A stretch of DNA of 64,000 nucleotides from Dehalococcoidia bacterium (lineage in GTDB: Bacteria; Chloroflexota; Dehalococcoidia; Lucifugimonadales; UBA1127): positions 9,276 through 73,275 of the forward strand of contig CAVOCU010000001.1 in NCBI GenBank assembly GCA_963694315.1, written 5' to 3'. How positions within the stretch are numbered: position 1 is the stretch's first letter; the number at the start of each line of letters is the position of its first letter. Below the pieces are notes generated by a model, which was given only the letters and a program-made list of their open reading frames with translations, searched no databases and was not told the DNA's origin. Position numbers and translations under genes: made by a program. This document shows positions 6,448 through 61,620 of the stretch, in pieces.

Positions 6448-7758
6448 ATGCTTTCACAACGGGAAAACGAGCTTCTGTCTCAGGTTGGCCCCGGAACGCC
6501 TATGGGAGAGCTGTTCAGGCGGTTCTGGCTCCCTGCGTTGCTATCATCGGAGCTCCCTGAGCCGGACTGTGCACCGATACGTCTGCGGCTGCTCGGCGAA
6601 AACCTGGTGGCCTTCCGTGACACGGATGGTAAAGTCGGCGTCATCGATAACGCATGCCCACATCGTCGCGCCAGCCTGTTCTTCGGTCGCAACGAGGAGT
6701 GCGGACTCCGCTGTGTCTATCACGGCTGGAAGTTCGATGTGAACGGCGATTGCGTGGACATGCCCTCGGAGCCTGCCGAGAGCAACTTCAAAGATAAGGT
6801 CAAGATTAAGGCATACCCCGCAGAGGACTTCGGCGATTGCATCTGGATATACATGGGGCCACCGGAGTTGAAGCATGACCTGCCCCAATTCGAGTGGGCG
6901 CGTGTGCCTGCCAACCAGCGTCGGGTTTCGCGATGGATTCAGGACTGCAACTACATGCAGGCTTTGGAAGGCGACCTCGATTCGACCCACGTGTCCTTCC
7001 TGCATAGGTGGATGGACGTGGAGCAGGCCATGCCCTGGGACCCGCAGCAGAAGGAGCGACGCCGCAAGACGAATAGCGGTCAGGCGTTGTTGTACCGTGA
7101 GGGAGCCCCCCGGTTCTCCGTCAAAGAGACCGACTTTGGCATGATCTACGGTGCACGTCGACCCGCGGGCGACGACGAGTACTACTGGCGGCTCACCAAC
7201 TGGATGCTGCCCGTGTACACTATGCCGCCCCAGCCCACGTCCTGGTTTGGCCACGCATGGGTGCCGGTGGACGATGAGCATATCTCTGTGGTGTCTTTCA
7301 ACTGGAACCCCAACGAGCCGCTGAACACGCCTACGGCCAACAATTCCGGCAACATTGAGCTTGAGCGTTGCCAGATGCCCTTCCCGGACGGCTTTGTCAT
7401 AGACACATGGCGTGATGTCCGTCAGGCCACCAATGATTACAAGATTGATAGGGAGCTTCAGCGCACCGGAAACTACACGGGCATTGGGCCGCAGCGAACC
7501 CAGGACGTCATGGTCAATGAGACCCAGGGCGGGGTGTCAGACCGGACCAAGGAGCACCTGGGCACGACGGATATGGCTATCATTGCCGCGCGACGGAAGT
7601 TATTACGATTGGCCCGGGAGCTTCAGGAGGGCATAGAACCTGTGGCGGCAATGCAGGGCGATATGTATCACATTCGCGCCATTGATGTGGTGACGAGCGA
7701 GTCGGACATCGTCAGCGTCCTGGAAAAGCACGGTGACATAGGCGTCGCGACGAACTAA
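6448..7758 (+). CDS. Rieske [2Fe-2S] oxygenase, alpha-only type (paralog 1)
   Basis: CPH-x16-CVYH Rieske motif and DSTHVSFLH (D-x2-H-x4-H) mononuclear iron motif. SD GGGGAGG. Confidence 0.9.
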   Translation: MLSQRENELLSQVGPGTPMGELFRRFWLPALLSSELPEPDCAPIRLRLLGENLVAFRDTDGKVGVIDNACPHRRASLFFGRNEECGLRCVYHGWKFDVNGDCVDMPSEPAESNFKDKVKIKAYPAEDFGDCIWIYMGPPELKHDLPQFEWARVPANQRRVSRWIQDCNYMQALEGDLDSTHVSFLHRWMDVEQAMPWDPQQKERRRKTNSGQALLYREGAPRFSVKETDFGMIYGARRPAGDDEYYWRLTNWMLPVYTMPPQPTSWFGHAWVPVDDEHISVVSFNWNPNEPLNTPTANNSGNIELERCQMPFPDGFVIDTWRDVRQATNDYKIDRELQRTGNYTGIGPQRTQDVMVNETQGGVSDRTKEHLGTTDMAIIAARRKLLRLARELQEGIEPVAAMQGDMYHIRAIDVVTSESDIVSVLEKHGDIGVATN

Positions 7759-7770
7759 CTCTAGTGTGGG

Positions 7771-8595
7771 TTACGTAAGGGCGTAGACCACGCCATCGAC
7801 GGCAACGCGCCCTTCGTTTGTCAGCTTGATGAGTTGGCTTTCAATCTGCTCCTTGCCAATGCGGAGCCGCTCTTCAGGCAGGGTTGGGTAGATAGTCTGG
7901 AACAGCTGATCAATGGTCTGTGGGGCCGTTGCAAGCTCAGCCAGAAGCTGCTCTTCCCTGCGTAGTCTGTGGTCAATGAGTTGCTGAATGCGCCCTCCCG
8001 GGTCTGTCAGAGGCCTGCCGTGTCCTGGGTAGATAGTCCCAGGCCGCAGGTCGCGCAGCATCACCAGGGTTTGCACATACTTCCCCAGGTCGCCCTCGCT
8101 TGGCCGCACCACCGTGGTGGTTACGCCCAGCACAGAGTCTGCGGATAGCATCACGTTTCGCTCAGGGATAATCACTGCCAGGCTTCCCACGGTATGCCCG
8201 GGCGCGTGGACTACTTGTAACGTCAGACCTCCCAGGTCGTAGGACTCGCCACCCTCCAGAACCCTGTCGAGCGTCGCTGCCCCCCAAAACCGTTCAGCCT
8301 CTATTGCCACTTGGTCCAACCTGTGTGCAGATGTGGGGGTGCCAATGTCGTTGTGGATACGGAGTGCACCGCCACCGTGGTCGCCGTGCCTGTGGGTGAT
8401 GAGTATCTCCGTGAGTGGTGGCCCGCCGACGCTCTTGAGGTACGTCATTCGCGCGATGTGGTCGTCCTCGTTGTCCCAGCCAGAGTCCACGAACATGGAG
8501 GCGTCTGTACCCTGTATCAGGTACACGTTAGGGGAAGGGATGCCGAAGGGCTTCCGTCCGTGGGCAAGCTGATGGATGCCGGGTTCAAGTTCCAA
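7771..8595 (-). CDS. MBL-fold metallo-hydrolase
   Basis: ITHRHGDHGGG (HxHxDH) motif, followed by later HAPGHT and a C-terminal helical extension. Confidence 0.85.
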   Translation of the reverse strand: MELEPGIHQLAHGRKPFGIPSPNVYLIQGTDASMFVDSGWDNEDDHIARMTYLKSVGGPPLTEILITHRHGDHGGGALRIHNDIGTPTSAHRLDQVAIEAERFWGAATLDRVLEGGESYDLGGLTLQVVHAPGHTVGSLAVIIPERNVMLSADSVLGVTTTVVRPSEGDLGKYVQTLVMLRDLRPGTIYPGHGRPLTDPGGRIQQLIDHRLRREEQLLAELATAPQTIDQLFQTIYPTLPEERLRIGKEQIESQLIKLTNEGRVAVDGVVYALT

Positions 8596-8670: not shown

Positions 8671-9057
8671 TTAGTTCTTCTCGGCTTCAGTGCCGTAGAG
8701 CGTCCTGATGACGTCTTGAATCTTCTTTGCTGCCTCAACGCCCTGGCGTGAGCCTACCAGGTAGTGCGCTTGGTAGACGTGGTCACGCGCAGCATACAAT
8801 CGCTTACTGATTTCTTCAGTCTCGCGCCCTTTTCTGGCAAAGGCCACTTGGGCGTCCGCTTCTCGCCAAACCAGGTTCATCTCAATCTCTCGACTGAAAT
8901 ACCCCTCTTCGTCTCCGGTTCCCGCCAGCCGTGCAATGAAATCCAGCAGCGTATCAGCCGCCAGGTCTTCAATATTCTCTACGGGATCGGTGTCATTCCA
9001 TGACCAGTTCATGTTTGTAGCCGTCCCTTCTCCCCCAGTATGCGATGGCACCAGCAT
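8671..9057 (-). CDS. hypothetical protein (start uncertain, possibly 9012)
   Basis: 128-aa acidic, helical ORF divergent from the nuclease gene. No family recognised. Confidence 0.35.
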   Translation of the reverse strand: MLVPSHTGGEGTATNMNWSWNDTDPVENIEDLAADTLLDFIARLAGTGDEEGYFSREIEMNLVWREADAQVAFARKGRETEEISKRLYAARDHVYQAHYLVGSRQGVEAAKKIQDVIRTLYGTEAEKN

Positions 9058-9132
9058 AATGGAAATGCCTCTGCCTTGTCACGGAGTGAGGCGAGACGAG
9101 GCTATAATAGCCGCAATCTCAATGCGGGAGAG

Positions 9133-10626
9133 GTGCCTTTGAATCTGTCAGCGTCAGACATTCACAATCTCTACCAGCCTAGCAGGTGCAGCCTGCGTGT
9201 CTATCTGCTGGCAAATGGAGAGCCACAGGCCGAAGAAGGTACGTTCTCCGCCATGCTCCGGGATTTGGGCGCACAACATGAAGCTAAGTATCTTGAGACT
9301 TTGGGCGATTTCGCAAGGCCAGAAGGTCGTACCCAGGAAGAACGGTGGGCTGACACACAGCGCCTGGTGAATTCCCTGGCGCCTATCATCTACCAACCCG
9401 TCCTCATAGCAGCTGCGCCGCCTGAGATGGGTAATCACAAGGTCGTCGGCATTCCTGACCTGCTGCTTTTGCAGGACGGCCTATACGTCATACGCGACGT
9501 GAAGCTGGCGCGGAACGTAGAGAACAACAGACATCCGGAGATTGTGGGGCAGCTTAGCCTGTATGGCTGGTTGTTCCGTGAGGCTTTTGGCGTTCCTCCA
9601 GCCGCATTGCAGCTCTTGTTGGGAGACGGAACGGTTGCGGAGCTTCCTGACGATGAGGGTAGCGGTGCAATGGACGCCTTGGGAGAAGTGCTCCAGCTTG
9701 GTGCGTTGCCGGAAGAGCCGTATGAGCCTGTTGGCTGGAGCAAGTGCAGCGATTGCGGCTACAAAAAACGATGCTGGGATAAAGCAACCAAACGGCAGGA
9801 CGTTGCAATCCTCCCGGGCGTTGACCAAGGGTTTGCACGGTTCCTCCGTGACCAGAAGGTTAATTCCGTTCAGCAGTTGCTGGAACGTTTTGATGCTTCA
9901 ACCCTCGCTGGTGCCTTGCGTCCTTGGGGTCAGCGTATGCAGAAGGTAGGCGCAAAACTGGCGAACAGCGTGATGGCCCACGCAGTAGCCCGAGTCACGG
10001 GCGAAGTGCAGCACCTCAGCCCGCCCCAGTTCCCGGAGTCGCCGAACTACATCGTGTTCGATATCGAAGGCATGCCGGCCTATCTGGACGATGATGAGAA
10101 GGCATACCTCTGGGGCACCCAGGTGTACGGAGAGAACGGCACGCCCTTCACGCCCGCGCTGGCGGGATTCCATGAAGAGGGAGACCGGGAGGGTTGGTTT
10201 GATTTCCTGGCCAACTGTCAGGCTGTGTTTGAACTTCATGGTGACCTGCCCATCCTGCACTGGGGCAGCTATGAGAAGACAAAGATCAACCAGTACCTTG
10301 CGCGGTACGGAGACCTGAAAGGCATCGCCTTGCGCATCCGCGAGAACCTTGTTGACCTGCTACCCATGACCCAGCGCTCCTTCGCCCTGCCAGACCCCTC
10401 GTACACGTTGAAGCTAGTGGAGCTGCGGGCTGGCTACAAACGCACTATGGACGAGTTCGGTGGAAGCTGGGCCATTGTGAACTATGCCCTGGCTGTAGAG
10501 TCCAAGGATGAGGTGATCCGCAAGGAAGTCATGGATCAGATTGTGAAGTACAACCGTGAGGACCTTGAAGCCACCTGGGCTGTTTTTGAGTGGCTTCGCA
10601 GCATTACGCCCATGAATAACACATAA
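9133..10626 (+). CDS. TM0106-family RecB/Cas4-like nuclease fused to an RNase H-like (DEDD-type) domain
   Basis: N-terminal Cys plus CSDCGYKKRC (a Cas4-like 4-Cys cluster). PD-(D/E)xK-like IPDLLL...IRDVK. C-terminal YIVFDIEG...NREDLEA exonuclease-like domain. The ORF-track start 9040 overlaps the divergent gene. GTG 9133 or TTG 9139 behind GGGAGAGG is more plausible. Confidence 0.7.
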   Translation: MPLNLSASDIHNLYQPSRCSLRVYLLANGEPQAEEGTFSAMLRDLGAQHEAKYLETLGDFARPEGRTQEERWADTQRLVNSLAPIIYQPVLIAAAPPEMGNHKVVGIPDLLLLQDGLYVIRDVKLARNVENNRHPEIVGQLSLYGWLFREAFGVPPAALQLLLGDGTVAELPDDEGSGAMDALGEVLQLGALPEEPYEPVGWSKCSDCGYKKRCWDKATKRQDVAILPGVDQGFARFLRDQKVNSVQQLLERFDASTLAGALRPWGQRMQKVGAKLANSVMAHAVARVTGEVQHLSPPQFPESPNYIVFDIEGMPAYLDDDEKAYLWGTQVYGENGTPFTPALAGFHEEGDREGWFDFLANCQAVFELHGDLPILHWGSYEKTKINQYLARYGDLKGIALRIRENLVDLLPMTQRSFALPDPSYTLKLVELRAGYKRTMDEFGGSWAIVNYALAVESKDEVIRKEVMDQIVKYNREDLEATWAVFEWLRSITPMNNT

Positions 10627-10684: not shown

Positions 10685-12001
10685 ATGCTAACGCAAGAAG
10701 ACAATGTACTGTTGACCAGGACAGGCCCTGGCACTGCAATGGGGGATCTCTTCCGTCGATTTTGGCAGCCGGTACTCCTGAGCGAGGAGCTACCTACCGC
10801 TGACTGCGACCCCGTTCGTATCAAGGTTCTCAGTGAGACTCTGGTGGCGTTTCGTGATACCAACGGCAACGTCGGCGTCGTCGATAACTTCTGCCCTCAT
10901 CGGCGCGCCAGCCTGTTCTTCGGTCGAAACGAAGAATGCGGCCTCCGCTGCGTCTATCACGGCTGGAAATTCGATGTGAACGGCGACTGCGTGGACATGC
11001 CGTCTGAGCCTGCCGAGAGCAACTTCAAAGACAAGGTTAAAATCAAGTCGTACCCGGCTCGCGATTACGGTAGCTGCATCTGGGTCTACATGGGTCCCGT
11101 AGAGTTGATGCCCGGGTTGCCCCAACTAGAGTGGGCCACGGCACCGGAAAGCCATCGCAACGTTCGGCGTTGGCTCCAGGAGTCCAATTACATGCAGTCC
11201 ACAGAAGGTGAGATTGATACGTCCCATGTGTCCTTCAATCACCGGTGGTTTGACCTCAGCAAAGCCCCGCGCCAGAACATTGGCAGGCGAATGAAGAACG
11301 GCCAGGCTTTGACCAACTTTGACGGCGCTCCCCAACTTACTGTCAAGGAAACCGACTACGGCTTCGTCTATGGTTCCCGAAGGGACGTGGGTGATGGCGA
11401 GTACTACTGGCGGGTAACCCAGTTCATCCTGCCCTTCTACAGCCTTATTCCCAGCCCCGGCGAGCGTGAAGGTGGCCGTTGCTGGGTGCCCATGGACGAT
11501 GAGCACATCTCCGTCTTCCAATACTCCGTCAGCACGGGTGACGCCTTCACTGACGAGCAGCGGAGGCTGATGAACGTAAGTCCTGAGAAGCTGCTTCGAG
11601 TGAAGTACAAGTTCGCTGACGGCTCGGTTGTTGATACATGGCAGCCTGAGCGACAGCTCCACAACGACTTCCTCATCGACCGAGACATGCAGCGCACGGT
11701 CAACTACACGGGTATTGCCAGCGGTCGTGAGCAGGATATGGCTATGACAGACAGCATGGGCTCCATTGGTGATCGCACCAAGGAACACCTTGGCACCAGT
11801 GACACCGCCATCATCTCTGGTCGCCGCATCCTGCTCCGCATGGCCCGTGAGTTGCAGGAGGGTATTGAGCCCTACGCCCCAGCGCACCCGGAGGTCTTTG
11901 CTGTCCGGGCCATAGACGTGGTGGACACGCAAGGTGATTTCTTCAAACTCCTGGAGGAGAAGGCGGAGTTAGGCAAGGCTCAGACTAGAGTCAGCGCCTA
12001 A
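10685..12001 (+). CDS. Rieske [2Fe-2S] oxygenase, alpha-only type (paralog 2)
   Basis: Same Rieske and DTSHVSFNH motifs. The true start is ATG 10685 behind GGGAGGG; the track ORF starts at 10637. Confidence 0.9.
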   Translation: MLTQEDNVLLTRTGPGTAMGDLFRRFWQPVLLSEELPTADCDPVRIKVLSETLVAFRDTNGNVGVVDNFCPHRRASLFFGRNEECGLRCVYHGWKFDVNGDCVDMPSEPAESNFKDKVKIKSYPARDYGSCIWVYMGPVELMPGLPQLEWATAPESHRNVRRWLQESNYMQSTEGEIDTSHVSFNHRWFDLSKAPRQNIGRRMKNGQALTNFDGAPQLTVKETDYGFVYGSRRDVGDGEYYWRVTQFILPFYSLIPSPGEREGGRCWVPMDDEHISVFQYSVSTGDAFTDEQRRLMNVSPEKLLRVKYKFADGSVVDTWQPERQLHNDFLIDRDMQRTVNYTGIASGREQDMAMTDSMGSIGDRTKEHLGTSDTAIISGRRILLRMARELQEGIEPYAPAHPEVFAVRAIDVVDTQGDFFKLLEEKAELGKAQTRVSA

Positions 12002-12251: not shown

Positions 12252-13352
12252 ATGGCAGACCTGAAATTTGCCTTTTGGGACTCTGTTGGCGGGTACAACG
12301 TAGAAGGCGAAAGTATGGCTGATGTCTACGAGAGGCATATTAAGCTGGCCCAACATTTAGAGGAACTTGGCTGGCATTCCTACTTTGTCATTGAACACCA
12401 GAACTCTCCAGTGGGCAGGATTACTGCCCCCACTGTCTACCTCACCGCAATTGCTCGCGCCACAACCACCCTGCGTATCGGTGCAATGATGTGGCAGCTG
12501 CCCTTCTACCACCCTATGCGTTTGGCCCAGGAGGTGGCGATGCTTGACCACCTCTCCCACGGTCGAGTCGAGTTCGGGTCTGGCATTGGCGTCCACGAAC
12601 ACGAATTCATGCGCTGGGGAGTCGATTACTACCAGCGGGCTGCTATGAGCGAAGAGGTGCTCACCCTGGTCAAGATGGCATGGACCCAGGACGAGGTCAC
12701 CTTTGCAGGCAAATATTTCCAATTTGATGAGGCGCTGCCGCAGCCCAAGCCCTTCCAGCAGCCGTATCCGCCCATCTGGGCAGCGGTGCATAGCGATGCG
12801 GCTATGGAGTTTGCCGCACGTAATAACCTCAACGTCTCCCAGAACCTGGACACAGATGAAGTGGTGGCCAGGAAATTTGACCTGTTCCGGAAGATATGGC
12901 GAGAGTGCAATCATCCGGGATCCATGCCCGGGATTTTCCTTCAACGGCAGGTCCACGTTGCTGAGACAGACGAGAAAGCCAATGCGGAAGCGCGCGAGTA
13001 TCTGGCATCTCCCGAAGGTGGCGCGGTTCGTGTAGGTGGCGGGCCCATCGCGGAGACCCGCATCGGTTGGGGAACCCATGCCAGGGGTATGGGTAGCGAC
13101 AGCGAACGACCCGATGATGCAGAGCGGGGCCGCACCATGATGCAGGCTGCCAAAGACTATGACTACAACATTGAGAATGGGCTGGCTTTGGTGGGAAGCC
13201 CGGAAACGATCATCCGCCTACTTCAGGAAGGGAAGAAACTCATCGGGTACGATATTTTCTGCACCAACCATCAGATAGGCCGGATGCCTCCTGAGTTGGT
13301 CACAAATTCCATAGAGCTCTTTGGGAAAGAGGTTATCCCCGCGTTCAAGTAG
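12252..13352 (+). CDS. luciferase-like monooxygenase (LLM class flavin-dependent oxidoreductase)
   Basis: 366 aa with LLM motifs (FVIEHQNSP, GRVEFGSGIG). SD GGAGGAG. Confidence 0.85.
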   Translation: MADLKFAFWDSVGGYNVEGESMADVYERHIKLAQHLEELGWHSYFVIEHQNSPVGRITAPTVYLTAIARATTTLRIGAMMWQLPFYHPMRLAQEVAMLDHLSHGRVEFGSGIGVHEHEFMRWGVDYYQRAAMSEEVLTLVKMAWTQDEVTFAGKYFQFDEALPQPKPFQQPYPPIWAAVHSDAAMEFAARNNLNVSQNLDTDEVVARKFDLFRKIWRECNHPGSMPGIFLQRQVHVAETDEKANAEAREYLASPEGGAVRVGGGPIAETRIGWGTHARGMGSDSERPDDAERGRTMMQAAKDYDYNIENGLALVGSPETIIRLLQEGKKLIGYDIFCTNHQIGRMPPELVTNSIELFGKEVIPAFK

Positions 13353-13438: not shown

Positions 13439-13939
13439 CTAGGCCTGCACTGCCCAAGACTGAGCCAGGCCCGGGAAGTCCCGGGCCATTTCATCAAGGG
13501 TGTCTTGGGATAGCAACGCATAGGAGCCTGTGGCTTCCACAGCTACCCGACCGTCAGCCAGCGAAACCCAGCCTTTGGTGTTGATGATGTTCCCCCGCCC
13601 ACCGCTCTTCTCCGCCGTAGCTGTCACGCGCTCGTCCGATGGTATTGGCAACCTGAACCGAAGCTCCAGTCGCGCTGACATACCCCAGCAGTTCTCCAAC
13701 ACTGGAACGCGACTCATCACCTCGTCCAGCAGGGCCGTGATGATTGCGCCGTGGAGGAAGCCCGGAAACCCCTGGTGGTGCGCCTTCCCCTGGTACGTCG
13801 TTACCACTTGGTTGCCCTGTCTCTCAAAGGTGAGCTGCAAGCCGCCAGTGTTTTTGGGGCCGCAGGCAAAGCACTGACCGTAGTCGGAATCATCGTTCAG
13901 GGAGATGGCCCTCGGAGGGTCAAAAAATTCTATGGTCAA
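13439..13939 (-). CDS. PaaI-family hotdog-fold thioesterase
   Basis: CFACGPKNTGGLQLTF and GFLHGAIITALLDE motifs. TTG start behind GAGGTG. Confidence 0.7.
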   Translation of the reverse strand: MTIEFFDPPRAISLNDDSDYGQCFACGPKNTGGLQLTFERQGNQVVTTYQGKAHHQGFPGFLHGAIITALLDEVMSRVPVLENCWGMSARLELRFRLPIPSDERVTATAEKSGGRGNIINTKGWVSLADGRVAVEATGSYALLSQDTLDEMARDFPGLAQSWAVQA

Positions 13940-14019: not shown

Positions 14020-14943
14020 TTAACCTTGAGCTGGTTGGGCACCTGCAGCCGTAAGCCTGTCCTTCGCAGCTACTATCACATCGTCTGGGAGTGGTCCTTT
14101 AGCAGCTGCGGTGATGTTGTCATCCAGATGTTCCGTGCTACTAGTTCCAACAATCGTGGTGTCCAGTCCGGGGTGGGAAAGGGTGAAACGCAGCATGAAC
14201 TCCATGCGAGTCATACCCTCTAGCAACTCATCCAGCTTGGAACTGTCCCACCAGTCTTGCATGGTCTCGTTGGGCAACATGTAATACCTACGGCCCTCCC
14301 AATCGTCAGGGGTACCCCGGGCCACGCCACCACGGACGATGATGCCCATCCCTGCATCAGACGCCTTGGTGATGACACCTTCATGCTCGCGTTGCAGGGC
14401 TGAGTAGGGTATTTGAAAGACATCGAACACGCCCATATCAATCTGCTCATGGAGTGTGGGCAAGACCCCAGACACGCCAACGAAGCGAGTTTTGCCTTCG
14501 TCTCGCAGCTTCAGCAGCTCCGCCAGAGCTTCCTCAGCATCAAATTCATCACGGCCAAGACTGCGATGGAACTGAACCACGTCAAGGTGGTCTGTCTTAA
14601 GGGTGCGCAAACTGTGCTCTACGCCTTCCCGAATGTTCTTGGCGGTGTGGACGTGGTCAGAGCCCTGCGGAGCGTTGGGTACACAACCACACTTGGACGC
14701 CAGCACGTACTCTGAGCGTCTGTGAGAAATGAACTTACCTATCAACTCCTCGCTTCTGCCGTAGTCAATGGAGGTGTCAATGAAGTTGATGCCCTTGTCT
14801 AAAACCTGGTTGAGCAGCTTGTCAGCAGCTTCGTCGCTGATGGCGGGGCCTGTCGTCCCCCCTCGCAGCTCCATAGCACCAAAGCCAAGAGTTGTTACCT
14901 GCAAGTCCGTACGGCCAAGGGCACGCCTTGGTATAGCATCCAT
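14020..14943 (-). CDS. aldo/keto reductase
   Basis: 307 aa. LGFGAMELRG, INFIDTSIDYG and IPYSALQRE are typical AKR blocks. Confidence 0.9.
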   Translation of the reverse strand: MDAIPRRALGRTDLQVTTLGFGAMELRGGTTGPAISDEAADKLLNQVLDKGINFIDTSIDYGRSEELIGKFISHRRSEYVLASKCGCVPNAPQGSDHVHTAKNIREGVEHSLRTLKTDHLDVVQFHRSLGRDEFDAEEALAELLKLRDEGKTRFVGVSGVLPTLHEQIDMGVFDVFQIPYSALQREHEGVITKASDAGMGIIVRGGVARGTPDDWEGRRYYMLPNETMQDWWDSSKLDELLEGMTRMEFMLRFTLSHPGLDTTIVGTSSTEHLDDNITAAAKGPLPDDVIVAAKDRLTAAGAQPAQG

Positions 14944-14954: not shown

Positions 14955-16016
14955 CTATGGTTTCGGTTCTTCCCTGTAGAAGCCAAGAGCCTTCAGCACA
15001 GGGGTGTCCGTGAAGCTGAACAGGAACGCTGGCTCCGTTGAGGATTCGTTGACATGTTCGTGGAAGGCCCAGCCCGGGACGCAGAACGTATCCTTGTTCG
15101 CCCAGTCCAGCTTCTGATCGCCAACCAGCGTGTGCCCCTTCCCCTCCACCACGTGGTAGACGGAGCTGGTCGTATGGCGATGGGCCTTTGTGCGCTCGCC
15201 CGGCCGCAGGAGTTGAACGAAGCAGGCTATCGTCGGCATAGCATGGCCGCCGGTGCTGGGGTTGGTGTACTCCATCATTACGCCGTCGTAGGGGCTACCG
15301 TCCTCACCTGTTGCCAATCGCTCCAGGGCTTCTCGCGTGCGATCCCAGGGGTAGTACATCAGCGGTGAAGAGCCTTCTTCTTTGCGCTCAATCCACGTGG
15401 GTTGCAGTGCCATGCTGCCGTATTTGGCCAGCGATGACCCTGGAAACTCGGTGATAGGCTGAGTGTCCTCCGAGTACGGGTCGTGGAAGGACATCTCCAG
15501 AAAATTCACTAGAGGCAAATCAAGCCCGTCCAGCCATATCATGGGATTCTTCGTATCGTTGCCGTGGTCGTGCCAAGCCCACGGGGGCGTTAGCACCAAG
15601 TCGCCTGGCAGCATAGGGAACCGCTCGCCTCCTACCGACGTGTAGCCGCCGTCACTCTCAATGATGAAGCGCAGCGCAGCGGGCGTGTGCCGGTGCGCTG
15701 GGGAAATCTCGCCTGGAAGCACCGTTTGGATGCCCCCGAACAGTGTTTGCGTTGTGGCAGTCCGGCCACCAAGTCCCGGGTTCATAAGCCGGAGAACCCG
15801 CCGCTCAGCTTCCGCTGTTCCAACCAACTCTGTGGCGCGTATGGCTTGGGGTCGAATGTCTTTCCAGCTCCATACGTACGGAGTGACCTTGCTGGCGGGT
15901 TCCCGTGCTTGAATGTCGCCCATGACCGTCCAGAGGGGCGCGACGTTATAGGCTTCCAGTTTTTTGTAGTATTTCTGTAGTTCTTCCGTAGTAGTCTGTT
16001 TGCTGGACACTTCCAC
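14955..16016 (-). CDS. gentisate 1,2-dioxygenase-like bicupin
   Basis: 353 aa. N-terminal LEAYNVAPLW and two cupin modules with His ligands (HRHTPAAL, HRHTTSSV). GTG start behind GGAGG. Confidence 0.8.
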   Translation of the reverse strand: MEVSSKQTTTEELQKYYKKLEAYNVAPLWTVMGDIQAREPASKVTPYVWSWKDIRPQAIRATELVGTAEAERRVLRLMNPGLGGRTATTQTLFGGIQTVLPGEISPAHRHTPAALRFIIESDGGYTSVGGERFPMLPGDLVLTPPWAWHDHGNDTKNPMIWLDGLDLPLVNFLEMSFHDPYSEDTQPITEFPGSSLAKYGSMALQPTWIERKEEGSSPLMYYPWDRTREALERLATGEDGSPYDGVMMEYTNPSTGGHAMPTIACFVQLLRPGERTKAHRHTTSSVYHVVEGKGHTLVGDQKLDWANKDTFCVPGWAFHEHVNESSTEPAFLFSFTDTPVLKALGFYREEPKP

Positions 16017-16054: not shown

Positions 16055-16819
16055 CTATGCGTGGGCTTTGGCTGTAATGGGCCCTAAGTACTTCTCAAAC
16101 CAGTCAAAAGTCCTGGCCCAGCCGTCTACTGCAGCCTCTACGCGATAGTTTGCGCGGCTGGTGATGAAAAAGGCGTGTCCTGCGCCGTCATAACGGTGAA
16201 ACTCATATGTCTTGTTGTGCTTCTTTAGCTCAGCCTCGTGGATGTCCACTTGCTCAGGGCTGGGCCTTGCATCATCGTTGCCAAAGAGCCCCAGTAAGGG
16301 GCACGATAAGTTGGGCGTCATGTCTAACGGCGCAACGGGCGCTGCGGCAGTCAATTCTTCCTTGGTGACAACCACGCCGCCGCCCCAGCAATCCACTGCT
16401 GCATCAAACTCAGGGATGTTGCAGGCTGCGATAAACACCTGACGACCGCCTGAGCAGAACCCGATGACGCCGACTTTGCCGTTCAGGTACGGTTGTGCCA
16501 GCAGATATTGGACGGTTCCCTTGGTATCACCTATGAACTGGGCGTCCGGGACGCCTCCGGCCTCGCGGATTGCTGCTGACATCTCAACCGCAGTGCCTGG
16601 CCCCTTCCGGTGGTGAAGGTTCGGGCAGATGGCGGCGTAGCCCTGGGATGCTAGCTTCCTCGTAATCTCCTTGATGTCCTGATCCCATCCGGGCATGTGA
16701 TGGATTACCACAACACCGGGATGGGGCCCGGGACCCATAGGCCTGGCAAAGTAAGCTTCAATTTCCGTTCCGCCATCGCCTTCAATGACAACGGTTTCTG
16801 CGATCATACCTTCGTACAT
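16055..16819 (-). CDS. dienelactone hydrolase family protein
   Basis: 254 aa. An alpha/beta hydrolase with the GFCSGG nucleophile elbow typical of DLH. Confidence 0.85.
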   Translation of the reverse strand: MYEGMIAETVVIEGDGGTEIEAYFARPMGPGPHPGVVVIHHMPGWDQDIKEITRKLASQGYAAICPNLHHRKGPGTAVEMSAAIREAGGVPDAQFIGDTKGTVQYLLAQPYLNGKVGVIGFCSGGRQVFIAACNIPEFDAAVDCWGGGVVVTKEELTAAAPVAPLDMTPNLSCPLLGLFGNDDARPSPEQVDIHEAELKKHNKTYEFHRYDGAGHAFFITSRANYRVEAAVDGWARTFDWFEKYLGPITAKAHA

Positions 16820-16991
16820 AGCTTTCCTCCCTACGTTTTGGCCTATTTTATTGGCCTAGCTTTTGGTCGCCACAGTGTCCCATGCTCATGCTTCGCGCGC
16901 AAGCGAGATGCGTTATCTTGCAACCCTCCTAGCTCCCCGCTACCCTGCTCCCAATAGAAAATGGAGCCACGTGAGTATAAGGAGGTACCTG

Positions 16992-17456
16992 ATGCCGAAA
17001 GTGAATAAGGTAGCCCACATCGTGCTGGCAGTAAAAGACGTGATGGCGTCTGTGAAGTTCTACACTGAAGTCCTTGGCATGGAAGCCGTTGATCTCAAGG
17101 AAAACCACAAAGCAGCGTTCCTGTCCTTTGGTACCCAGCACCATGACGTTGCCGTTTTTGAGGCCCCGGACGGTGCCGAGCGAGGGCAGATTGGCCTCAA
17201 CCACTTCGCTATGCAGATAGAGGGTGGCATACTTGAGCTCAAAGAGATGCACCAGCGACTTCTGGATCATGGGGTGACCATCACCCATACAACAGACCAC
17301 ATAATTACCAAGAGCGTGTACTTCTTGGATCCGGACGGTAACCAGCTGGAGGTTTTTGCCGAGGGGTTTGAAGTTCCCAGTGAAGGCCTGAATTTCATTC
17401 GACAGGGCACCTACCACGTGAAGCTCCTGGAGTTAGAAGTTCCCGCTGCCAGCTAG
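16992..17456 (+). CDS. VOC family protein (glyoxalase / extradiol dioxygenase fold)
   Basis: The true start is ATG 16992 behind AAGGAGG. VAHIVLAVKDVMASVKFYTEVLGM is a VOC N-terminus. Confidence 0.8.
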   Translation: MPKVNKVAHIVLAVKDVMASVKFYTEVLGMEAVDLKENHKAAFLSFGTQHHDVAVFEAPDGAERGQIGLNHFAMQIEGGILELKEMHQRLLDHGVTITHTTDHIITKSVYFLDPDGNQLEVFAEGFEVPSEGLNFIRQGTYHVKLLELEVPAAS

Positions 17457-17638: not shown

Positions 17639-18481
17639 CTAGCTCTTGTATTCCTTTTCCATAGCGTAGATGTCCTGTAGCCCCAACAAGTCTGCAATCT
17701 CCGTCCGATACTGCGGCGTACTGATAGCACCATTGTCGCGCAGTTCCGTCATAGCGCGTTTCACCGCATCGTAGACCACCGTCAGCGTGTAGCCTGCCAG
17801 CATCAGCTTGAAGCCCAGTTCGGCTACTTCGCCCGTCGTTGCTACAGGGTCAGCGCCGTTGAACACCTTGGGCAGGTCAGCCATCTCCCGGGCGCACGTC
17901 TCCAGATCTTCTTTAGTTTTTACTCCATCCACAAACACCAGGTCAGCCCCCGCCGCGTAGTAGGCCTTGCATCGACGGATTGTGTCCTCCCAACCGTTGA
18001 CCTGCAGGGCGTCCGTCCGTGCAATGATGACGAAGTCCTTGTCTTTGCGTGCGTCCAGGGCTGCGCGCACTTTCTGAACGTGCTCCTCCATAGGGATTAC
18101 GTCCTTCCCAGCAAAGAATCCGCACTTCTTTGGGAACACCTGATCCTCAATGTGGATGCCGCTCACCCCAATCGACTCGTACTCCTGCACTGCACGATGC
18201 ACATTGATTGCGTTGCCGTACCCCGTATCGCAATCGGCCACCACCGGCACTTCCACCGCGTTGGCTATATACCGAGCGTTGGCCACCATCTCCGTCTGGG
18301 TCAGCAGTCCTACGTCTGAGAAGCCGTGCTCAGCGGAAGTGCCAGAGCCAGTCATGTACACGGCCTTGAACCCCACAGATTCTGCAATCTTGGCGTGGAG
18401 GGCGTTGAGGCAGAATGGTGCTACTACCATCTCGCCGCTGCTCAGCATCGCTCGAAGCCTGGTTGTTCTCTCGTTTGCCAT
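17639..18481 (-). CDS. isocitrate lyase / PEP mutase family enzyme (methylisocitrate-lyase-like)
   Basis: DCDTGYGN and HIEDQVFPKKCG motifs. Start ATG 18481 behind AAGGAGA. Confidence 0.85.
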   Translation of the reverse strand: MANERTTRLRAMLSSGEMVVAPFCLNALHAKIAESVGFKAVYMTGSGTSAEHGFSDVGLLTQTEMVANARYIANAVEVPVVADCDTGYGNAINVHRAVQEYESIGVSGIHIEDQVFPKKCGFFAGKDVIPMEEHVQKVRAALDARKDKDFVIIARTDALQVNGWEDTIRRCKAYYAAGADLVFVDGVKTKEDLETCAREMADLPKVFNGADPVATTGEVAELGFKLMLAGYTLTVVYDAVKRAMTELRDNGAISTPQYRTEIADLLGLQDIYAMEKEYKS

Positions 18482-18598
18482 GTTGGTTCTCCTTCTCATA
18501 AATTGAGGTCTTCCTATTCCCAATGTGCCGGGTGGGAAGACCTCATCCTGGGGCAACCGTCAGGTCATGGGGAGGGCAGGGAAGATAGGTCGGCTTGG

Positions 18599-19861
18599 CT
18601 ACAGAATCATGGACTCTGCAGCTACCGCTTTCAAGGACATATCCTGCGATGCCTTCACGGCGGCTGAACGGATGCGATACAGGTCACCGTGTTGAGGGGC
18701 GTACGGCTCAATGCCTTCTTGAAAGTCAGCCAACTCTCGTAGCAGCCTGCGCCGAGCGCCGATGATGGCCGCATCTGACGTTCCTAAATGCTCTTTGTTC
18801 CTGTCGCTGATGGCTCCCATACCTTCTATTACTGCCATGTCCTGGGCTTGGATGCCCTTGATGCCGCTGTAGCTCACCGTTTGCTGCTTTGTGCGGTCAA
18901 TGAGGTAGTCATTACCCTTATTGGCATAAGCTTTATAGCTCAATGGCATCACCAGCTCGTGGAAGATGCCGCCTGTCTCGTACTCCGTGCGTTCAGCAGC
19001 CGTTAGAGCCCTGCGTGGGTGCCACGATGCTCGGAAGACCAGTGATGTGTTGTCGTCGGCAGGCACATACATGTTGCCCGTCATCACCGCATCTTCCTCT
19101 GCGGGGACTATTGTCCCGTAGGGTAGCATCCAGGGCGTGATACGCCAGTAGTACTTCCCCTCCGGCGTCGTGCGCCGCGCGCCAATGATCAGACCATACT
19201 CGGTTTCGTCCAGGACAAACCGTGGAGACTTGTCCTGTAAGGCGGTGCCCTGAGCATCGGAGTTTGACACGGTCAGTGTGTAATCGGCGGGCTTCAGGCT
19301 GCTGTGTAGGAAGCTGATGTGGCTGGAGTCTATGCCACCTTCCAATGCTTGGAGCCAATTGCATTCCTGAAGGCACTTGGTCAGAAACAGGTTTTCTTCC
19401 GGGCAGGAAGCCCACCCCAGGTCTGGAAGCTGCGGTCTGCGGTCTGGGGGCCCCATGTAGGCCCATACCACAACTCCGCGCTCTTCAGTGGGATATGCGG
19501 CTATCTTCACCTTGTTCTTGAAGTTGCTCTCTGCCGGCTCAGACGGCATGTCTACGCAGTTACCCTCTGCATCAAACTTCCAACCGTGGTAGACGCACCG
19601 CAGGCCGCATTCCTCGTTCCTGCCGAAGAACATACTTGCGCGACGGTGTGGGCAGTAGTTGTCGATGAGCCCTACTACTCCGTCCGTGTCTCTGTATGAG
19701 ATGAGTGACTCTCCAAGGATTCTCACTCGCACGGGAGGGCAGTCTGGTTGGGGTACTTCTTCAGACAGAAGTGCAGGAACCCAGTATCGGCGTAAATACT
19801 CGCCCATAGGTGTACCAGGGCCAACATGGGTCAGCAGGTCATTCTCTTCAGTGCTGAGCAT
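18599..19861 (-). CDS. Rieske [2Fe-2S] oxygenase, alpha-only type (paralog 3)
   Basis: CPH-x16-CVYH plus DSSHISFLH. Confidence 0.9.
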   Translation of the reverse strand: MLSTEENDLLTHVGPGTPMGEYLRRYWVPALLSEEVPQPDCPPVRVRILGESLISYRDTDGVVGLIDNYCPHRRASMFFGRNEECGLRCVYHGWKFDAEGNCVDMPSEPAESNFKNKVKIAAYPTEERGVVVWAYMGPPDRRPQLPDLGWASCPEENLFLTKCLQECNWLQALEGGIDSSHISFLHSSLKPADYTLTVSNSDAQGTALQDKSPRFVLDETEYGLIIGARRTTPEGKYYWRITPWMLPYGTIVPAEEDAVMTGNMYVPADDNTSLVFRASWHPRRALTAAERTEYETGGIFHELVMPLSYKAYANKGNDYLIDRTKQQTVSYSGIKGIQAQDMAVIEGMGAISDRNKEHLGTSDAAIIGARRRLLRELADFQEGIEPYAPQHGDLYRIRSAAVKASQDMSLKAVAAESMIL

Positions 19862-28158: not shown

Positions 28159-28240
28159 GGAATCTCCTATAACATTTGTGGATGCTGGCCCCTGCAAAGG
28201 GGCCAGCATCCACGTTTAACCCGGTAGAGTGCGGGAATAG

Positions 28241-49804: not shown

Positions 49805-49961
49805 GGGCCTTAGGCCAACCGGTACTTTGGCTCGGAACTAAATATAGTTGCCATTCGTTTTTCGTAAGTGTCAGGTGACGCGGAGGATCTTTCTGTCTTG
49901 TTGACAGCTACGATACGCGTATGCTAGCGTGAGAAGAAGGATTTCGAAAATATCACAAACG

Positions 49962-50270
49962 CTGTGACGGGGAGTAGTAGCATAGTTCACGCTTCAGAGA
50001 GTCGGCGATAGGTGGAAAGCCGATAGCGGTTGGATTGCGAACTCGCCCCTGAGTGGAGGGAGTGAACAAGGGCGCGCCCTTGGCCCACGTTTTCTGGAAC
50101 TGGTCATACGGCTAAGCCAGATAGATGCGGGAACAAGTGAGGTTCTTTGTAGCTCCCTACGGTTGCGCCGTTACAGCAGCCTGAGGTGTTCCTTTTCATC
50201 TGAGAAGGAAAATGAGGGTGGTACCGCGGGTAGCGATGAGACCCGTCCCTGGTGGACGGGTATTTTTGTG
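49962..50270 (+). promoter_or_regulatory. T-box riboswitch leader, Leu specifier CUC (50042-50044)
   Basis: GA/K-turn, AGUA...GAA-CUC-G specifier loop, AG bay AGAGAG (49996), distal loop GGUGGAA (50011) and F-box CCGUUA (50168). The T-box AAUGAGGGUGGUACCGCG (50211-50228) matches the consensus exactly. A terminator follows. Confidence 0.9.
50241..50270 (+). terminator. T-box terminator hairpin ACCCGTCC-ctggt-GGACGGGT plus ATTTTTGTG
   Basis: 8-bp GC-rich stem followed by a U-run, 90 nt upstream of ilvB. Confidence 0.85.
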
Positions 50271-59152: not shown

Positions 59153-60328
59153 CTAACCAGACGTAGCGACTTCCGTAAGTGCTTCCAGGCCAAAGAGGTT
59201 TGCGGCGTTGTCCCAGAGGATCTTCCGTTTGTTGTCGTCGGACACGCCCTCCAATGCCAGGAAGGTGTTCACTGCCTCCGGGAAGATGGAATCGCTATGG
59301 GGGTAGTCCGTGGAGAACAAGAGTTTGTCAGCCCCCATGTAATCGATGGTGTACTTGATGGGTGACTCCTCAGGCTCGATGACCGAGTAGCACTGTCGCT
59401 TGAAGTACTCGCTGGGGAGCATGGACAGCTTGATTTCTAGGTCAGGCGCATTGGTCTCCCACTTGTCGTCCAGCCTCCAGAGGAACCAGGGCAGCCAACT
59501 CGCATTGACCTCTAGGAAGGCTGGCTTCAGGTTGGGGAACCGCTCCAGCACGCCGCCGATGATGAGCTCCGCCAGTTGGGCTTGGGCGTGGACCGGGCCT
59601 GTCATGGTGTTTCCGACGACACCCATGCCCTTGTGCCCGAAGTAGCGATGGTTGTAGTTGTCCTTCAGGTTGTAGTTAGCGGGCGGCCCGTGCATCCCGA
59701 AAGCAGTGCCGAGTCGGTTCATCTCTTCCCATAGCGGGTCAAAGAACTCATCACAGAGCAGGTTGCCGTTCACTGCGCCACCGGTCATGGCCACGGCCAC
59801 CGCTCCAAGCTCTTCTACAGCACGCTTGGCCTCACCCGCTGCCAGCTTTGCATCCTGAGGCGGTACCCATGCCCAGAACTTGAAGCGGTCTGGGTGATGG
59901 CTGACAAACTCTGCGGCGTAATCGTTGTAGACCTGGCAAAGGGCCAAGGCGTGTTCCGGATCCAATCCATCGTACCGGACGATGCCCATAGCCGCTGTGG
60001 GCATGAACACGCCGATGTCTATGCCTTCGATGTCGAACCCTTCCAGGAAAACGTCAGGCTCAGGGTTCTGCGTGACCTTCAATAGCTCCGGCACTGCGGG
60101 GATACGCCGGAGGCTGCGCTGCCGCACCATGGGGTTAGAAGCTATTGGTGGCTTCACCACGCCCTCAATCTCAATGCGAGCGCCGCTGCCCTCTGCAATG
60201 CCGCCGTTTTCTGGCCTCACAATCTTTGTCCGAGACCTGAAAGGCTCCGGCAGCTTCTCCATCCAGAGTTCCAGGGGCTCCAGCAGATGGGGCTCACTAT
60301 CGATGACCTTGAAGCCGTTCTTCGCCAT
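59153..60328 (-). CDS. amidohydrolase-2 family protein
   Basis: 391 aa with the FSTDYPHSD terminal metal motif. Lies 32 nt downstream of Rieske paralog 5. Confidence 0.85.
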   Translation of the reverse strand: MAKNGFKVIDSEPHLLEPLELWMEKLPEPFRSRTKIVRPENGGIAEGSGARIEIEGVVKPPIASNPMVRQRSLRRIPAVPELLKVTQNPEPDVFLEGFDIEGIDIGVFMPTAAMGIVRYDGLDPEHALALCQVYNDYAAEFVSHHPDRFKFWAWVPPQDAKLAAGEAKRAVEELGAVAVAMTGGAVNGNLLCDEFFDPLWEEMNRLGTAFGMHGPPANYNLKDNYNHRYFGHKGMGVVGNTMTGPVHAQAQLAELIIGGVLERFPNLKPAFLEVNASWLPWFLWRLDDKWETNAPDLEIKLSMLPSEYFKRQCYSVIEPEESPIKYTIDYMGADKLLFSTDYPHSDSIFPEAVNTFLALEGVSDDNKRKILWDNAANLFGLEALTEVATSG

Positions 60329-60360
60329 GACATCCTCCGTAACAGGGTAGTACCAACTTG

Positions 60361-61620
60361 CTAGACCAGAGCGTGCCCTGGGTCCAAGGGACGAGCCTCC
60401 TGCCAGGTGATGTTTGCGGGCTTCGTAAAGTCATCACCGCGGATGAGTTCATAGGTGATGGACGCAGCCAACCCGGGCGGATCTATGCCGTCAGTGTAGC
60501 CGCGGACAGAGTCTGCCAGCAGTCGCCGCATCGCGATGATGGCGCGGTCGCTGGTGCCAAGGTGCTCCCGCGTGCGGTCATAGATGGCTCCCATGGTCTC
60601 CTGGACGGCGTGGTCCTGGGTGCGTGTGCCGAAGATGCCTGAGAAGCCCCGGGACTTCATTGCCTCCCGGTCTTGCAGATACCAATTATCGAAGTTTCTC
60701 GCCTTCCGAAACCCGGGTTGCAGGTCATGGAAGCCGAACTGCTCAATGCGGTCTGCGCGCTCCTGGGCTGTGAAAGGACGCTCCTCGTTGAAGCCGATCT
60801 CCCACTGCCAACAACTGAAATCATCGCGAGGCACCCAGATGGAAAAGCCGGTGGTGCGGCCAGGAGCCCCGGGAATGTAGGCATAGAACGGAAGGATATA
60901 GGGCGTCATGCGCACGTACTCCTCGCTGTCGCTGGCTCGCCTGACGGCGGCGTACCTGTAACCGTAAGACGTGTACTCAACCTCCAGGCGTGGGGCAGTG
61001 TCCTTCATCACAAGGGCGTTTACCGGATTTCCCCACCCGGTGCGTACCCCGCTGAAAGAGCGGTGCAGGAACGAGGCGTGGGAAGAGTCTATGCCACCCT
61101 CTAATCCTTGGAGGTAGTTGCTTTCTTGAATGGTCTTGATGAGCACAAGGTGATCATCCGTCACCTTTGTCCACTGGAAGGCTGGGAACGGGGGGAGTTT
61201 ATCTGCCGGCCCCATATACGCCCACACAATGCCTGCCACTTCCTGAACCGGATAGGCCCGGGCCTGCACCTTATCTTTGAAGTTGCTGGCGGAGGGTTCT
61301 GAGGGCATGTCCAGGCAGTTGCCGTCAACATCGAATTTCCAGCCGTGGTAGATACACGTTAGGCCGCAGTCCTCGTTGCGACCCAAGGCCAGGGATGCGC
61401 CGCGATGGGGGCAGTACTCTTCCATAACGCCTACCTTCCCATTGGTATCGCGGAAGGCAATCAAATCCTCGCCCAGGAGTTTGAGGCGTATGGGAGTGCC
61501 GTCGTGTTCGCGGATTTCGCTTGCTATGAAGGCCGGTATCCAGAACCGACGCATCATTTCACCCAAGGGCGTACCCCGGTCAGTCCGAGTGATGAGATTG
61601 TTCTCTTCCTTGGTCAGCAT
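60361..61620 (-). CDS. Rieske [2Fe-2S] oxygenase, alpha-only type (paralog 5, most divergent)
   Basis: CPH-x16-CIYH plus DSSHASFLH. Confidence 0.9.
   Translation of the reverse strand: MLTKEENNLITRTDRGTPLGEMMRRFWIPAFIASEIREHDGTPIRLKLLGEDLIAFRDTNGKVGVMEEYCPHRGASLALGRNEDCGLTCIYHGWKFDVDGNCLDMPSEPSASNFKDKVQARAYPVQEVAGIVWAYMGPADKLPPFPAFQWTKVTDDHLVLIKTIQESNYLQGLEGGIDSSHASFLHRSFSGVRTGWGNPVNALVMKDTAPRLEVEYTSYGYRYAAVRRASDSEEYVRMTPYILPFYAYIPGAPGRTTGFSIWVPRDDFSCWQWEIGFNEERPFTAQERADRIEQFGFHDLQPGFRKARNFDNWYLQDREAMKSRGFSGIFGTRTQDHAVQETMGAIYDRTREHLGTSDRAIIAMRRLLADSVRGYTDGIDPPGLAASITYELIRGDDFTKPANITWQEARPLDPGHALV

Follow-up and report, generated by a model that had tools for sequence, protein, structure and literature searches.

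The closest described relatives of the genes reported here are the alpha-only Rieske oxygenases of the phthalate family, three of which have solved structures: the isophthalate dioxygenase IPDO_KF1 (9INA/9IOY; PMC12445078) and the phthalate 4,5-dioxygenase PDO_KF1 (7FJL/7V25/7V28; PMC8649396), both from Comamonas testosteroni KF1, and RO_CH34 from Cupriavidus metallidurans (7FHR), a member of the phthalate family that is inactive on phthalate (PMC8649396). A further relative, by Pfam domain only, is LigXa of Sphingobium sp. SYK-6, the oxygenase of the three-component 5,5'-dehydrodivanillate O-demethylase. Its gene ligXa (SLG_07770) and those of its ferredoxin, ligXc (SLG_08500), and its reductase, ligXd (SLG_21200), have distant locus tags (PMC12997858). 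Here we describe five genes of this kind, R1 to R5, in a 64-kb stretch of DNA from a Dehalococcoidia bacterium (contig CAVOCU010000001.1; “the window” refers to the whole 64,000 nucleotides analysed). We consider it highly probable that this is a piece of ordinary Dehalococcoidia chromosome with five anciently diverged, alpha-only paralogs of the phthalate family, which would act on different carboxylated substrates and be served by an unlinked electron donor.

Large sets of such genes have been described in SAR202 bacteria. Genomes of SAR202 group VII contain 1-62 paralogs of the alpha subunit of ring-hydroxylating dioxygenases (RHD), versus 1-3 beta-subunit genes; the alpha paralogs are mostly annotated as phthalate 4,5-dioxygenase, and Saw et al. 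(2020; PMC6946804) explicitly doubt that phthalate is the substrate and propose that, through the paralogs, more kinds of aromatic compounds can be used. Colatriano et al. (2018; PMC6123686) report the same pattern in Arctic SAR202. In a term search, “ferredoxin” is not mentioned in either paper, and “reductase” is not mentioned in the second. The window resembles the SAR202 expansions in its Dehalococcoidia-class genome, in its many alpha and few or no beta genes (five and zero, respectively, in 64 kb), in the phthalate 4,5-dioxygenase labels of its oxygenases and in the paralogs of luciferase-like monooxygenase (LLM) interspersed among them; it differs in that the relatives of its genome are labelled only Dehalococcoidia or Chloroflexota. 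The first-pass annotation of this DNA had proposed a modular diversification of one oxygenase scaffold onto many substrates, with a shared reductase encoded elsewhere. This idea is not new, because SAR202 expansions of such genes have already been published, and it is essentially the hypothesis of those papers, in which diversification onto recalcitrant aromatics is proposed (PMC6946804, PMC6123686).

The listing of open reading frames (ORFs) and their translations bear out all five genes as full-length, alpha-only Rieske oxygenases (Table 1). Each matches the Pfam families Rieske (E 1e-18 to 4e-20) and LigXa_C (E 5e-34 to 2e-50) above the gathering score, and in a MAFFT alignment the proteins are 42-59% identical to one another (44-59% to R1). 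A tblastn search of the window with all five proteins finds no sixth copy, fragment or pseudogene. Likewise, the beta-subunit family Ring_hydroxyl_B is not recorded by Pfam for any called gene of the window, whose sole NTF2-like gene encodes a SnoaL_3 protein and adjoins none of R1-R5. R1-R5 all have the Rieske ligands C70, H72, C89 and H92, as do 106/106 members of our family set, which comprises 106 sequences arranged in a neighbour-joining tree and is accompanied by 80 related loci, 43 of them from Chloroflexota. The predicted D-x2-H-x4-H iron site occurs in all five proteins as D178-x2-H181-x4-H186, and is invariant in its bridging D178, in H181 and H186, and in the Asp that aligns with D343 of PDO_KF1 (Asp353, R1 numbering).

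Against solved structures, a profile of R1-R5 gives near full-length matches (~390-415 residues covered) to IPDO_KF1 (E 3.7e-128), RO_CH34 (E 4.7e-125) and PDO_KF1 (E 8.9e-121), and the next matches, SxtT, NdmA, CARDO and DdmC, are 100 orders of magnitude weaker. Matches of this strength leave no doubt about the fold. With the two KF1 enzymes, R1-R5 thus share the alpha-only composition and homology over the full length (E 1e-121 to 1e-128), as well as identical Rieske ligands, Asp178, His181/His186/Asp, Arg231 and Arg244, and the long C-terminal helical region (LigXa_C) that is also the point of likeness to LigXa. Identities to PDO_KF1, IPDO_KF1 and RO_CH34 are only 37-45% (37-44% for RO_CH34), with R5 being closest to PDO_KF1 (45%), and none of the five reaches an NCBIfam equivalog, the matches there being weak, in the Rieske domain and far below cutoffs; none of the five falls into a characterised orthogroup. 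Their sequences place them in an alpha-only clade of the phthalate family with PDO, IPDO and, by Pfam domain, LigXa.

Within this family the five copies have been separate for a long time. The proportion of synonymous differences (pS) is 0.68-0.88, both for residues 1-125 and for residues 126 to the end, and finite dS values are at least 0.75. In the tree of 106 sequences, clades of other phyla are interleaved among the R1-R5 clades. R1 and R2 belong to sister clades, each with its own ortholog (82% identity) in “Dehalococcoidia bacterium S34_275”, which is the closest genome among the matches listed (82% to R1) and whose locus is L008 (the other L numbers used below also denote related loci of the 80-locus sample). 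Orthologs of R3 (74% identity) are found in two Dehalococcoidia genomes (L018 and L021), and the exact R3 protein is present on 21 contigs. The nearest relatives of R4 are in soil “Chloroflexia” metagenome-assembled genomes (MAGs), at 57-60% identity; R5 lies on a long branch beside PDO_KF1, and RO_CH34, which comes from another clade and host, groups with none of the five. Saturated synonymous sites and the placement of the copies in separate clades show that the duplications are ancient, with no sign of a recent duplication or a local burst. The family as a whole is large: at least 597 homologs turn up when each species is represented by one genome (Chloroflexota, Acidobacteriota, Actinomycetota, Alpha- and Betaproteobacteria, Bacillota, Nitrospirota and others), and at least 8000 in metagenomes. 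Related Dehalococcoidia loci carry 2-3 Rieske oxygenase copies per 21 kb.

The idea of a modular diversification survives in part. In its favour are the catalytic halves, which are only 33-50% identical among proteins of 419-442 aa and so diverge as had been noted, the variable substrate pocket, the separate clades, and the neighbourhoods, which differ from one paralog to another and are partly conserved in synteny; the part that does not survive is the picture of an island, or of a burst that took place locally. In two loci, an extra tandem Rieske paralog separates the R3 ortholog from the gene for a phosphoenolpyruvate (PEP) mutase (L018 9429-10730; L021 2830-4221). Given this extra copy and the 42 bp that separate R3 from the PEP-mutase gene in the window, a paralog was gained or lost inside an otherwise syntenic block.

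The surroundings of the five genes are those of a core chromosome. GC content is 0.50-0.59 in the window and 0.53-0.59 across R1-R5, there are no tRNA genes in the window, and no integrase or transposase family is recorded by Pfam for any called gene. Between R4 and R5 lie genes for an OpuA-type ABC transporter and an MFS transporter, znuABC, a gene for a Fur-family regulator, glyA and ilvBNC-leuA-leuCD, and since a T-box leader stands there upstream of the ilvB-ilvN-ilvC-leuA-leuCD operon, we take this span to be core biosynthetic chromosome. Just past the right edge of the window follow genes for an aminotransferase, AdoHcyase, trehalose synthesis, ribosomal proteins S12/S7 and EF-G. The sister species S34_275 keeps the gene order from a methyltransferase upstream of R1 through R2, the gentisate-dioxygenase set and R3 to the acyl-CoA ligase. 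The window is therefore syntenic core chromosome and not an island, as it had been called. That the oxygenases arrived together on a catabolic island gained by horizontal transfer is, in our view, improbable: several catabolic genes do cluster in the window, the relatives of R4 are in soil MAGs and not in marine Dehalococcoidia, horizontal gene transfer has been proposed for SAR202 dioxygenases (PMC6946804, citing PMC6123686), GC falls to 0.50 at 40-44 kb, and individual genes may still have been transferred long ago, but the even GC over R1-R5, the missing tRNA genes and mobile-element families, the housekeeping genes within and just outside the span, and the gene order kept from upstream of R1 to beyond R3 all speak against a joint arrival. 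The stretch of lowest GC (0.50-0.51 at 40000-44000; 0.53-0.59 elsewhere) is that of the OpuA-type ABC transporter and the MFS gene.

A further feature that sets R1-R5 apart from PDO and IPDO is that none has an adjacent PDR-type reductase. We screened all ORFs of at least 60 aa, by regular expressions and BLAST, in the window and in a 10-kb flank on each side of it, and found no PDR-type reductase, no Rieske-type or plant-type ferredoxin, no FAD ferredoxin reductase, and no dedicated reductase adjacent or fused to an oxygenase; the only matches in the window are the Rieske domains of R1-R5 themselves. The screen does recover true PDR-type reductases, as a PDR-like candidate that it picked out in L053 was confirmed by Pfam. 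It had been stated earlier that no ferredoxin or reductase gene occurs in the 64 kb, which holds for partners of the Rieske-oxygenase type but overlooks a Fer2/Fer2_2 and FAD_binding_5 pair ~1 kb upstream of R4. With their neighbours at 32921-37026, these genes encode a molybdenum hydroxylase of the xanthine-dehydrogenase family, and not a reductase for a Rieske oxygenase, and their products are the only Fe-S/flavin electron-transfer proteins of the window; their best NCBIfam matches are all below cutoffs. In several Chloroflexota loci, among them L019 (9755-13720 and 18115-21186), Rieske paralogs adjoin subunits of a molybdenum hydroxylase of the same family, as they do here. Several small ORFs were considered as hidden ferredoxins and rejected: an 81-aa ORF after R4 is the N-terminal piece of an aldolase, an 86-aa ORF upstream of R5 is by eye small and hydrophobic and probably a membrane protein, and 128-aa ORFs near R2 and R4 are mutually unrelated and have no Pfam match.

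The same is seen in related loci. PDR-type reductases lie within 10 kb of the oxygenase in 6/80 loci, all of them outside Chloroflexota and mostly in the IPDO clade, where adjacent reductases cluster and where none of R1-R5 falls; a Rieske ferredoxin stands immediately upstream in five of the 80, which are proteobacterial and in three cases also have an FAD reductase. Since 42/43 Chloroflexota loci have no linked partner, orphan alpha genes are the rule in this phylum. The exception is L069, from a Tara Oceans Dehalococcoidia MAG, where the only candidate carrier in the 43 loci is encoded by a tandem pair of Rieske-type ferredoxin genes ~7.5 kb upstream of two tandem oxygenase genes. A shared reductase encoded elsewhere is plausible and has a precedent in LigXa, whose ferredoxin LigXc and reductase LigXd, encoded at distant locus tags, make the same orphan-alpha arrangement (PMC12997858).

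Two other sources of electrons deserve mention. Marine or sponge-type Dehalococcoidia might run the whole battery of orphan alpha subunits from one lineage-specific donor of a kind new to Rieske oxygenases, for which the Fe-S/FAD module of a molybdenum hydroxylase, or some other redox protein not yet recognised, may be among the candidates, and whose docking surface may be residues 66-121 of the Rieske domain, which are ~90% identical where catalytic domains are less than 42% identical, even across genomes. We give this little credence, because unlinked classical partners have a precedent and a related marine locus has normal Rieske ferredoxins. Still less likely is a non-canonical source in which, for R4, the adjacent FAD and [2Fe-2S] subunits of the molybdenum hydroxylase couple the oxidation of one substrate to the oxygenation of another with no classical reductase. 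The CoxG, CoxM and CoxS genes are indeed oriented like R4 and situated 0.6-2.4 kb upstream of it, L019 has a CoxL homolog 52 bp downstream of a Rieske gene, Cox subunits occur within 7 kb in L010 and L084, and canonical partners are missing from almost all Chloroflexota loci. However, Cox-type genes are found in only ~4/43 Chloroflexota loci (a frequency for which we claim no significance), a gene for 128 aa, read from the other strand, stands between R4 and the Cox genes, 4/5 paralogs have no such neighbour, LigXa is a direct precedent for unlinked classical partners, and the Tara Dehalococcoidia locus has ordinary Rieske-type ferredoxins.

The preferred reading, of five paralogs with an unlinked donor, also holds that their substrates differ, and for this the evidence is in the pocket. 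To compare it, the three PDB sequences were rebuilt from HMMER alignments and re-aligned with R1-R5, and the roles of residues were taken from the work on PDO_KF1 (PMC8649396). In that enzyme one face of the pocket is formed by Arg207, Arg231, Ser179 and Arg244 and the opposite face by Phe278, Phe280 and Phe339, and alanine variants of Arg207 and of Arg244 have no detectable phthalate turnover (PMC8649396). Ser/Thr179, Arg231 and Arg244 are kept in all five paralogs, and in the family set Arg231 is found in 105/106 and Arg244 in 101/106 members, with the remaining pocket positions being highly variable. In R1 to R5, in this order, Arg207 is replaced by L, L, T, Y and L; Ser182 by V, V, I, L and A; Phe280 by S, Q, R, S and E; and Phe339 by Q, G, I, I and T; at Phe278 the residues are V, V, V, F and Q, so that R4 alone keeps the phenylalanine. 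The alignment is ungapped from position 207 to the conserved A-P-R anchor, and in none of the five is there an arginine at 206-208. Because Arg231 and Arg244 are fixed and the opposite wall differs, five different substrates are likely, and the pocket is most likely a shared carboxylate anchor that faces a substrate-specific wall, in five different enzymes that probably act on carboxylated aromatics.

The public IMG annotation has a different implication, namely that R1-R5 are genuine phthalate 4,5-dioxygenase subunits, kept as redundant copies for the degradation of phthalate esters. The nearest solved structures are indeed PDO and IPDO, and Arg231 and Arg244 are conserved. Of the determinants of a phthalate 4,5-dioxygenase (Arg207, Arg244, Ser182, Phe280 and Phe339), however, Arg244 alone is kept, and Arg207, whose alanine variant lacks detectable turnover in PDO_KF1, is replaced in all five copies. 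The identity to PDO_KF1 is low, no NCBIfam equivalog is reached, and R1-R5 are as different from one another as from PDO. There is no PDR reductase gene nearby, the dihydrodiol-dehydrogenase family is absent from the Pfam records of called genes, and the dehydrogenase and transporter typical of pht/iph operons are not evident in the Pfam records of the window. We therefore regard this reading as extremely unlikely; since Arg207 and the aromatic wall are not kept, the public label is probably wrong, and probably none of R1-R5 is a true phthalate 4,5-dioxygenase.

The N-terminal part of the proteins behaves differently. It had been described as almost invariant over 120 aa, which is an overstatement, as residues 1-125 are only 58-79% identical in pairwise comparisons. 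The high conservation is confined to a 56-residue core (residues 66-121), with 86-96% identity among R1-R4 and 66-70% between R5 and the others. Most of the pattern originally pointed out is generic to the family and the lineage, because throughout the family the N-terminal domain is 62% conserved versus 39% for the catalytic domain. The core of R1-R4 does exceed the 65% (standard deviation 9%) of family pairs with matched C-terminal divergence, but core identities of 89-96% are also found between R1, R2 or R4 and non-orthologous Dehalococcoidia paralogs (L018:9429, L022, L028, L031 and L042). As the same conservation recurs across genomes between non-orthologous paralogs, we interpret the core as a lineage-level constraint that is held by purifying selection and not by gene conversion. 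A near-identical core produced by recent duplication or by ongoing gene conversion within the genome, for which one could cite the excess over matched family pairs, the somewhat lower pS of the R1-R2 core (0.47, the lowest of three pairs at 0.47-0.54) and a core identity that is slightly higher within genomes than between them (means of 0.75 and 0.69), is rejected as scarcely credible, since synonymous sites of the core are near saturation in most pairs (pS 0.67-0.84), third positions at identical residues are only 52-72% identical, no long tracts of identical DNA are seen between copies, and the conservation is repeated equally in other genomes. The core would be compatible with a docking site for a common donor, without proving one.

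From the solved homologs we infer that each paralog would be a head-to-tail alpha3 trimer or a stacked alpha3-alpha3 hexamer. Electrons from NAD(P)H would reach the Rieske cluster (Cys70, His72, Cys89, His92) by way of a partner protein encoded elsewhere, and would pass on through Asp178, from one subunit to the next, to the mononuclear iron (His181, His186 and Asp353, R1 numbering), where O2 would be activated and the substrate hydroxylated or O-demethylated. Each of the five paralogs would have a carboxylated, probably aromatic, substrate of its own, different from those of the others, and would feed its own set of enzymes: a cupin-like protein and an LLM for R1, an LLM for R2, a gentisate-type ring-cleavage set for R3, an aldolase, a thiamine pyrophosphate (TPP) enzyme and a CoA ligase for R4, and an Amidohydro_2 protein for R5. 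Purifying selection on the core would fit a docking surface for one common electron donor.

Several points weigh against this scheme. The alignment at position 207 may be off by one residue, and RO_CH34 illustrates the problem, as its residue at this position is Trp201 in the published structural alignment and Arg202 in the sequence alignment. RO_CH34, which is inactive on phthalate, also keeps Arg231 and Arg244 while lacking the other phthalate determinants, so that these two residues do not prove a carboxylate substrate. The argument for a shared donor is drawn from conservation only, and conservation of the core may equally reflect constraints from the cluster or the subunit interface; moreover, the partner screen reached 10 kb past the window, and a partner gene could lie 10-70 kb away. 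Finally, the host can be placed by its relatives no more closely than as Dehalococcoidia/Chloroflexota, so that it may or may not belong to SAR202: the window has no rRNA gene, the named homologs of its IlvC, none of them above 73% identity, come without exception from MAGs called Dehalococcoidia or Chloroflexi, and the nearest genomes, like these IlvC homologs, are labelled as Dehalococcoidia/Chloroflexota MAGs, several of which come from sponge or Tara Oceans samples.

Table 1. Positions of the features discussed (window coordinates, except for the two ferredoxins of locus L069).
Feature	Position	Strand	Remarks
R1, Rieske oxygenase, alpha-only, phthalate/LigXa family	6448-7758	+	436 aa; Pfam Rieske 3.6e-19, LigXa_C 4.6e-34
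R2, Rieske oxygenase	10685-12001	+	438 aa; Pfam Rieske and LigXa_C; 59% identity to R1
R3, Rieske oxygenase	18599-19861	-	420 aa; Pfam Rieske and LigXa_C
R4, Rieske oxygenase	30981-32309	-	442 aa; Pfam Rieske, LigXa_C and weak VanA_C
R5, Rieske oxygenase	60361-61620	-	419 aa; Pfam Rieske and LigXa_C; most divergent copy
Cupin-motif protein	4829-5404	+	191 aa; motifs HPHDH...G and PGAIHAQKN; no Pfam match at E<=0.01
LLM before R1	5434-6366	+	Bac_luciferase 3.3e-59
PD-(D/E)XK nuclease and RNase_H_2-superfamily protein	9040-10626	+	~500 aa; between R1 and R2
LLM downstream of R2	12252-13352	+	Bac_luciferase 1.3e-57
4HBT-like protein	13439-13939	-	Pfam; R3 set
Aldo-keto reductase	14020-14943	-	Pfam; R3 set
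Gentisate-1,2-dioxygenase-like bicupin	14955-16016	-	TIGR02272 402 bits (cutoff 442); R3 set
Dienelactone-hydrolase-family protein	16055-16819	-	Pfam; R3 set
VOC/glyoxalase	16908-17456	+	Pfam; R3 set
PEP-mutase/isocitrate-lyase (ICL)-family lyase	17639-18556	-	Pfam; prpB-like NCBIfam model below cutoff; 42 bp after R3
Acyl-CoA ligase	26656-28209	-	R4 set
TPP enzyme	28241-29872	-	NCBIfam NF004807 726 bits, above cutoff; R4 set
Class II aldolase, interrupted	30071-30841	-	In-frame TAA at 30596-30598; R4 set
CoxG-like	32921-33373	-	Upstream of R4
FAD subunit (medium)	33370-34230	-	FAD_binding_5 1.7e-48
[2Fe-2S] subunit (small)	34232-34705	-	Fer2 and Fer2_2 (4e-30)
Mo subunit (large)	34789-37026	+	MoCoBD_1 5e-74; divergently transcribed
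T-box leader	49955-50253	+	Rfam RF00230, 110.9 bits, E 1.2e-23; upstream of ilvB-ilvN-ilvC-leuA-leuCD
Amidohydro_2 protein	59153-60328	-	Pfam 8.6e-32; 32 bp after R5; fold family of LigW-type non-oxidative decarboxylases
Rieske-type ferredoxin, L069	426-761	+	111 aa; Pfam Rieske ~1e-16; tandem with the next
Rieske-type ferredoxin, L069	792-1109	+	105 aa; Pfam Rieske ~1e-16

The neighbours that the first-pass annotation named are correct for the LLMs (R1 and R2), the PEP-mutase/ICL enzyme (R3), the aldolase, TPP enzyme and acyl-CoA ligase (R4) and the Amidohydro_2 protein (R5), while the “cupin” beside R1 shows cupin-like His motifs but has no Pfam match. In S34_275, the R1 ortholog likewise has this cupin-motif protein upstream (73% identity), and no homolog of the R1-linked LLM (LLM310) is detected at that locus (L008). 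Both genes are probable operon partners of R1, judging from the common strand and the gaps of 29 and 81 bp. The pairing of R2 with an LLM is kept in S34_275, with a gap of 140 bp. The large nuclease/RNase_H_2 protein between R1 and R2 occupies the same place in S34_275 (58% identity), is not obviously catabolic, and has no mobile-element features around it.

The gene set downstream of R3 is conserved in S34_275 and L021. Its bicupin also scores 323 bits on the 5-aminosalicylate dioxygenase model, and would be a ring-cleavage enzyme of the gentisate or salicylate type that falls just outside the curated family. Because a conserved set of the gentisate-dioxygenase type follows R3, its position suggests that R3 prepares a gentisate-like ring for cleavage.

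Downstream of R4, the aldolase gene is split into pieces of 81 and 168 aa in one reading frame, whose summed length matches that of an intact paralog at 1703-2458. The split recurs in the JGI gene calls, and the gene is either a pseudogene or the product of a shared assembly error.

The adjacency of a Rieske oxygenase and an Amidohydro_2 gene, seen at R5, is also present in L012 (gap of 77 bp) and L029 (43 bp), and the Amidohydro_2 protein beside R5 is probably a decarboxylase. There is a parallel in Sphingobium sp. SYK-6, where ligW (SLG_07850), which encodes a decarboxylase of the Amidohydro_2 fold, lies near ligXa (PMC12997858). The two systems differ in that no LigZ or LigY homologs are identified in the window, and in the host, which is a member of Chloroflexota and not a sphingomonad.

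The window matches the 148,570-bp JGI contig Ga0589678_0000002 (sample 3300060728), and also near-identical ENA, NCBI and Logan contigs. A 1-base homopolymer indel separates it from Ga0589678_0000002 at ~3345 (CCC vs CCCC), inside a 102-aa ORF at 3292-3600, and because of this difference the window is a near-identical but different assembly or a population variant.

The five-gene set is therefore a real feature that was correctly spotted and is ordinary for its lineage; it illustrates a known pattern well and is not a discovery. The genomic pattern is already in the literature, and our results confirm and refine that work in five respects: the genes are assigned to the PDO/IPDO/LigXa clade, individual pocket residues argue against phthalate as their substrate, the copies are found to be ancient and syntenic, the lack of linked partners is quantified across Chloroflexota, and the Rieske core is seen to be conserved throughout the lineage. 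They also sharpen a practical question, namely which reductase serves the orphan alpha subunits of Dehalococcoidia. R1-R5 belong to a large family on which hardly any biochemistry has been done, and the window offers five clean, syntenically conserved pairs of oxygenase and cassette that are suited to expression and screening. If R1-R5 do oxidise natural aromatic acids, they would bear on the breakdown of recalcitrant dissolved organic matter by Chloroflexota, and on the ocean carbon cycle.

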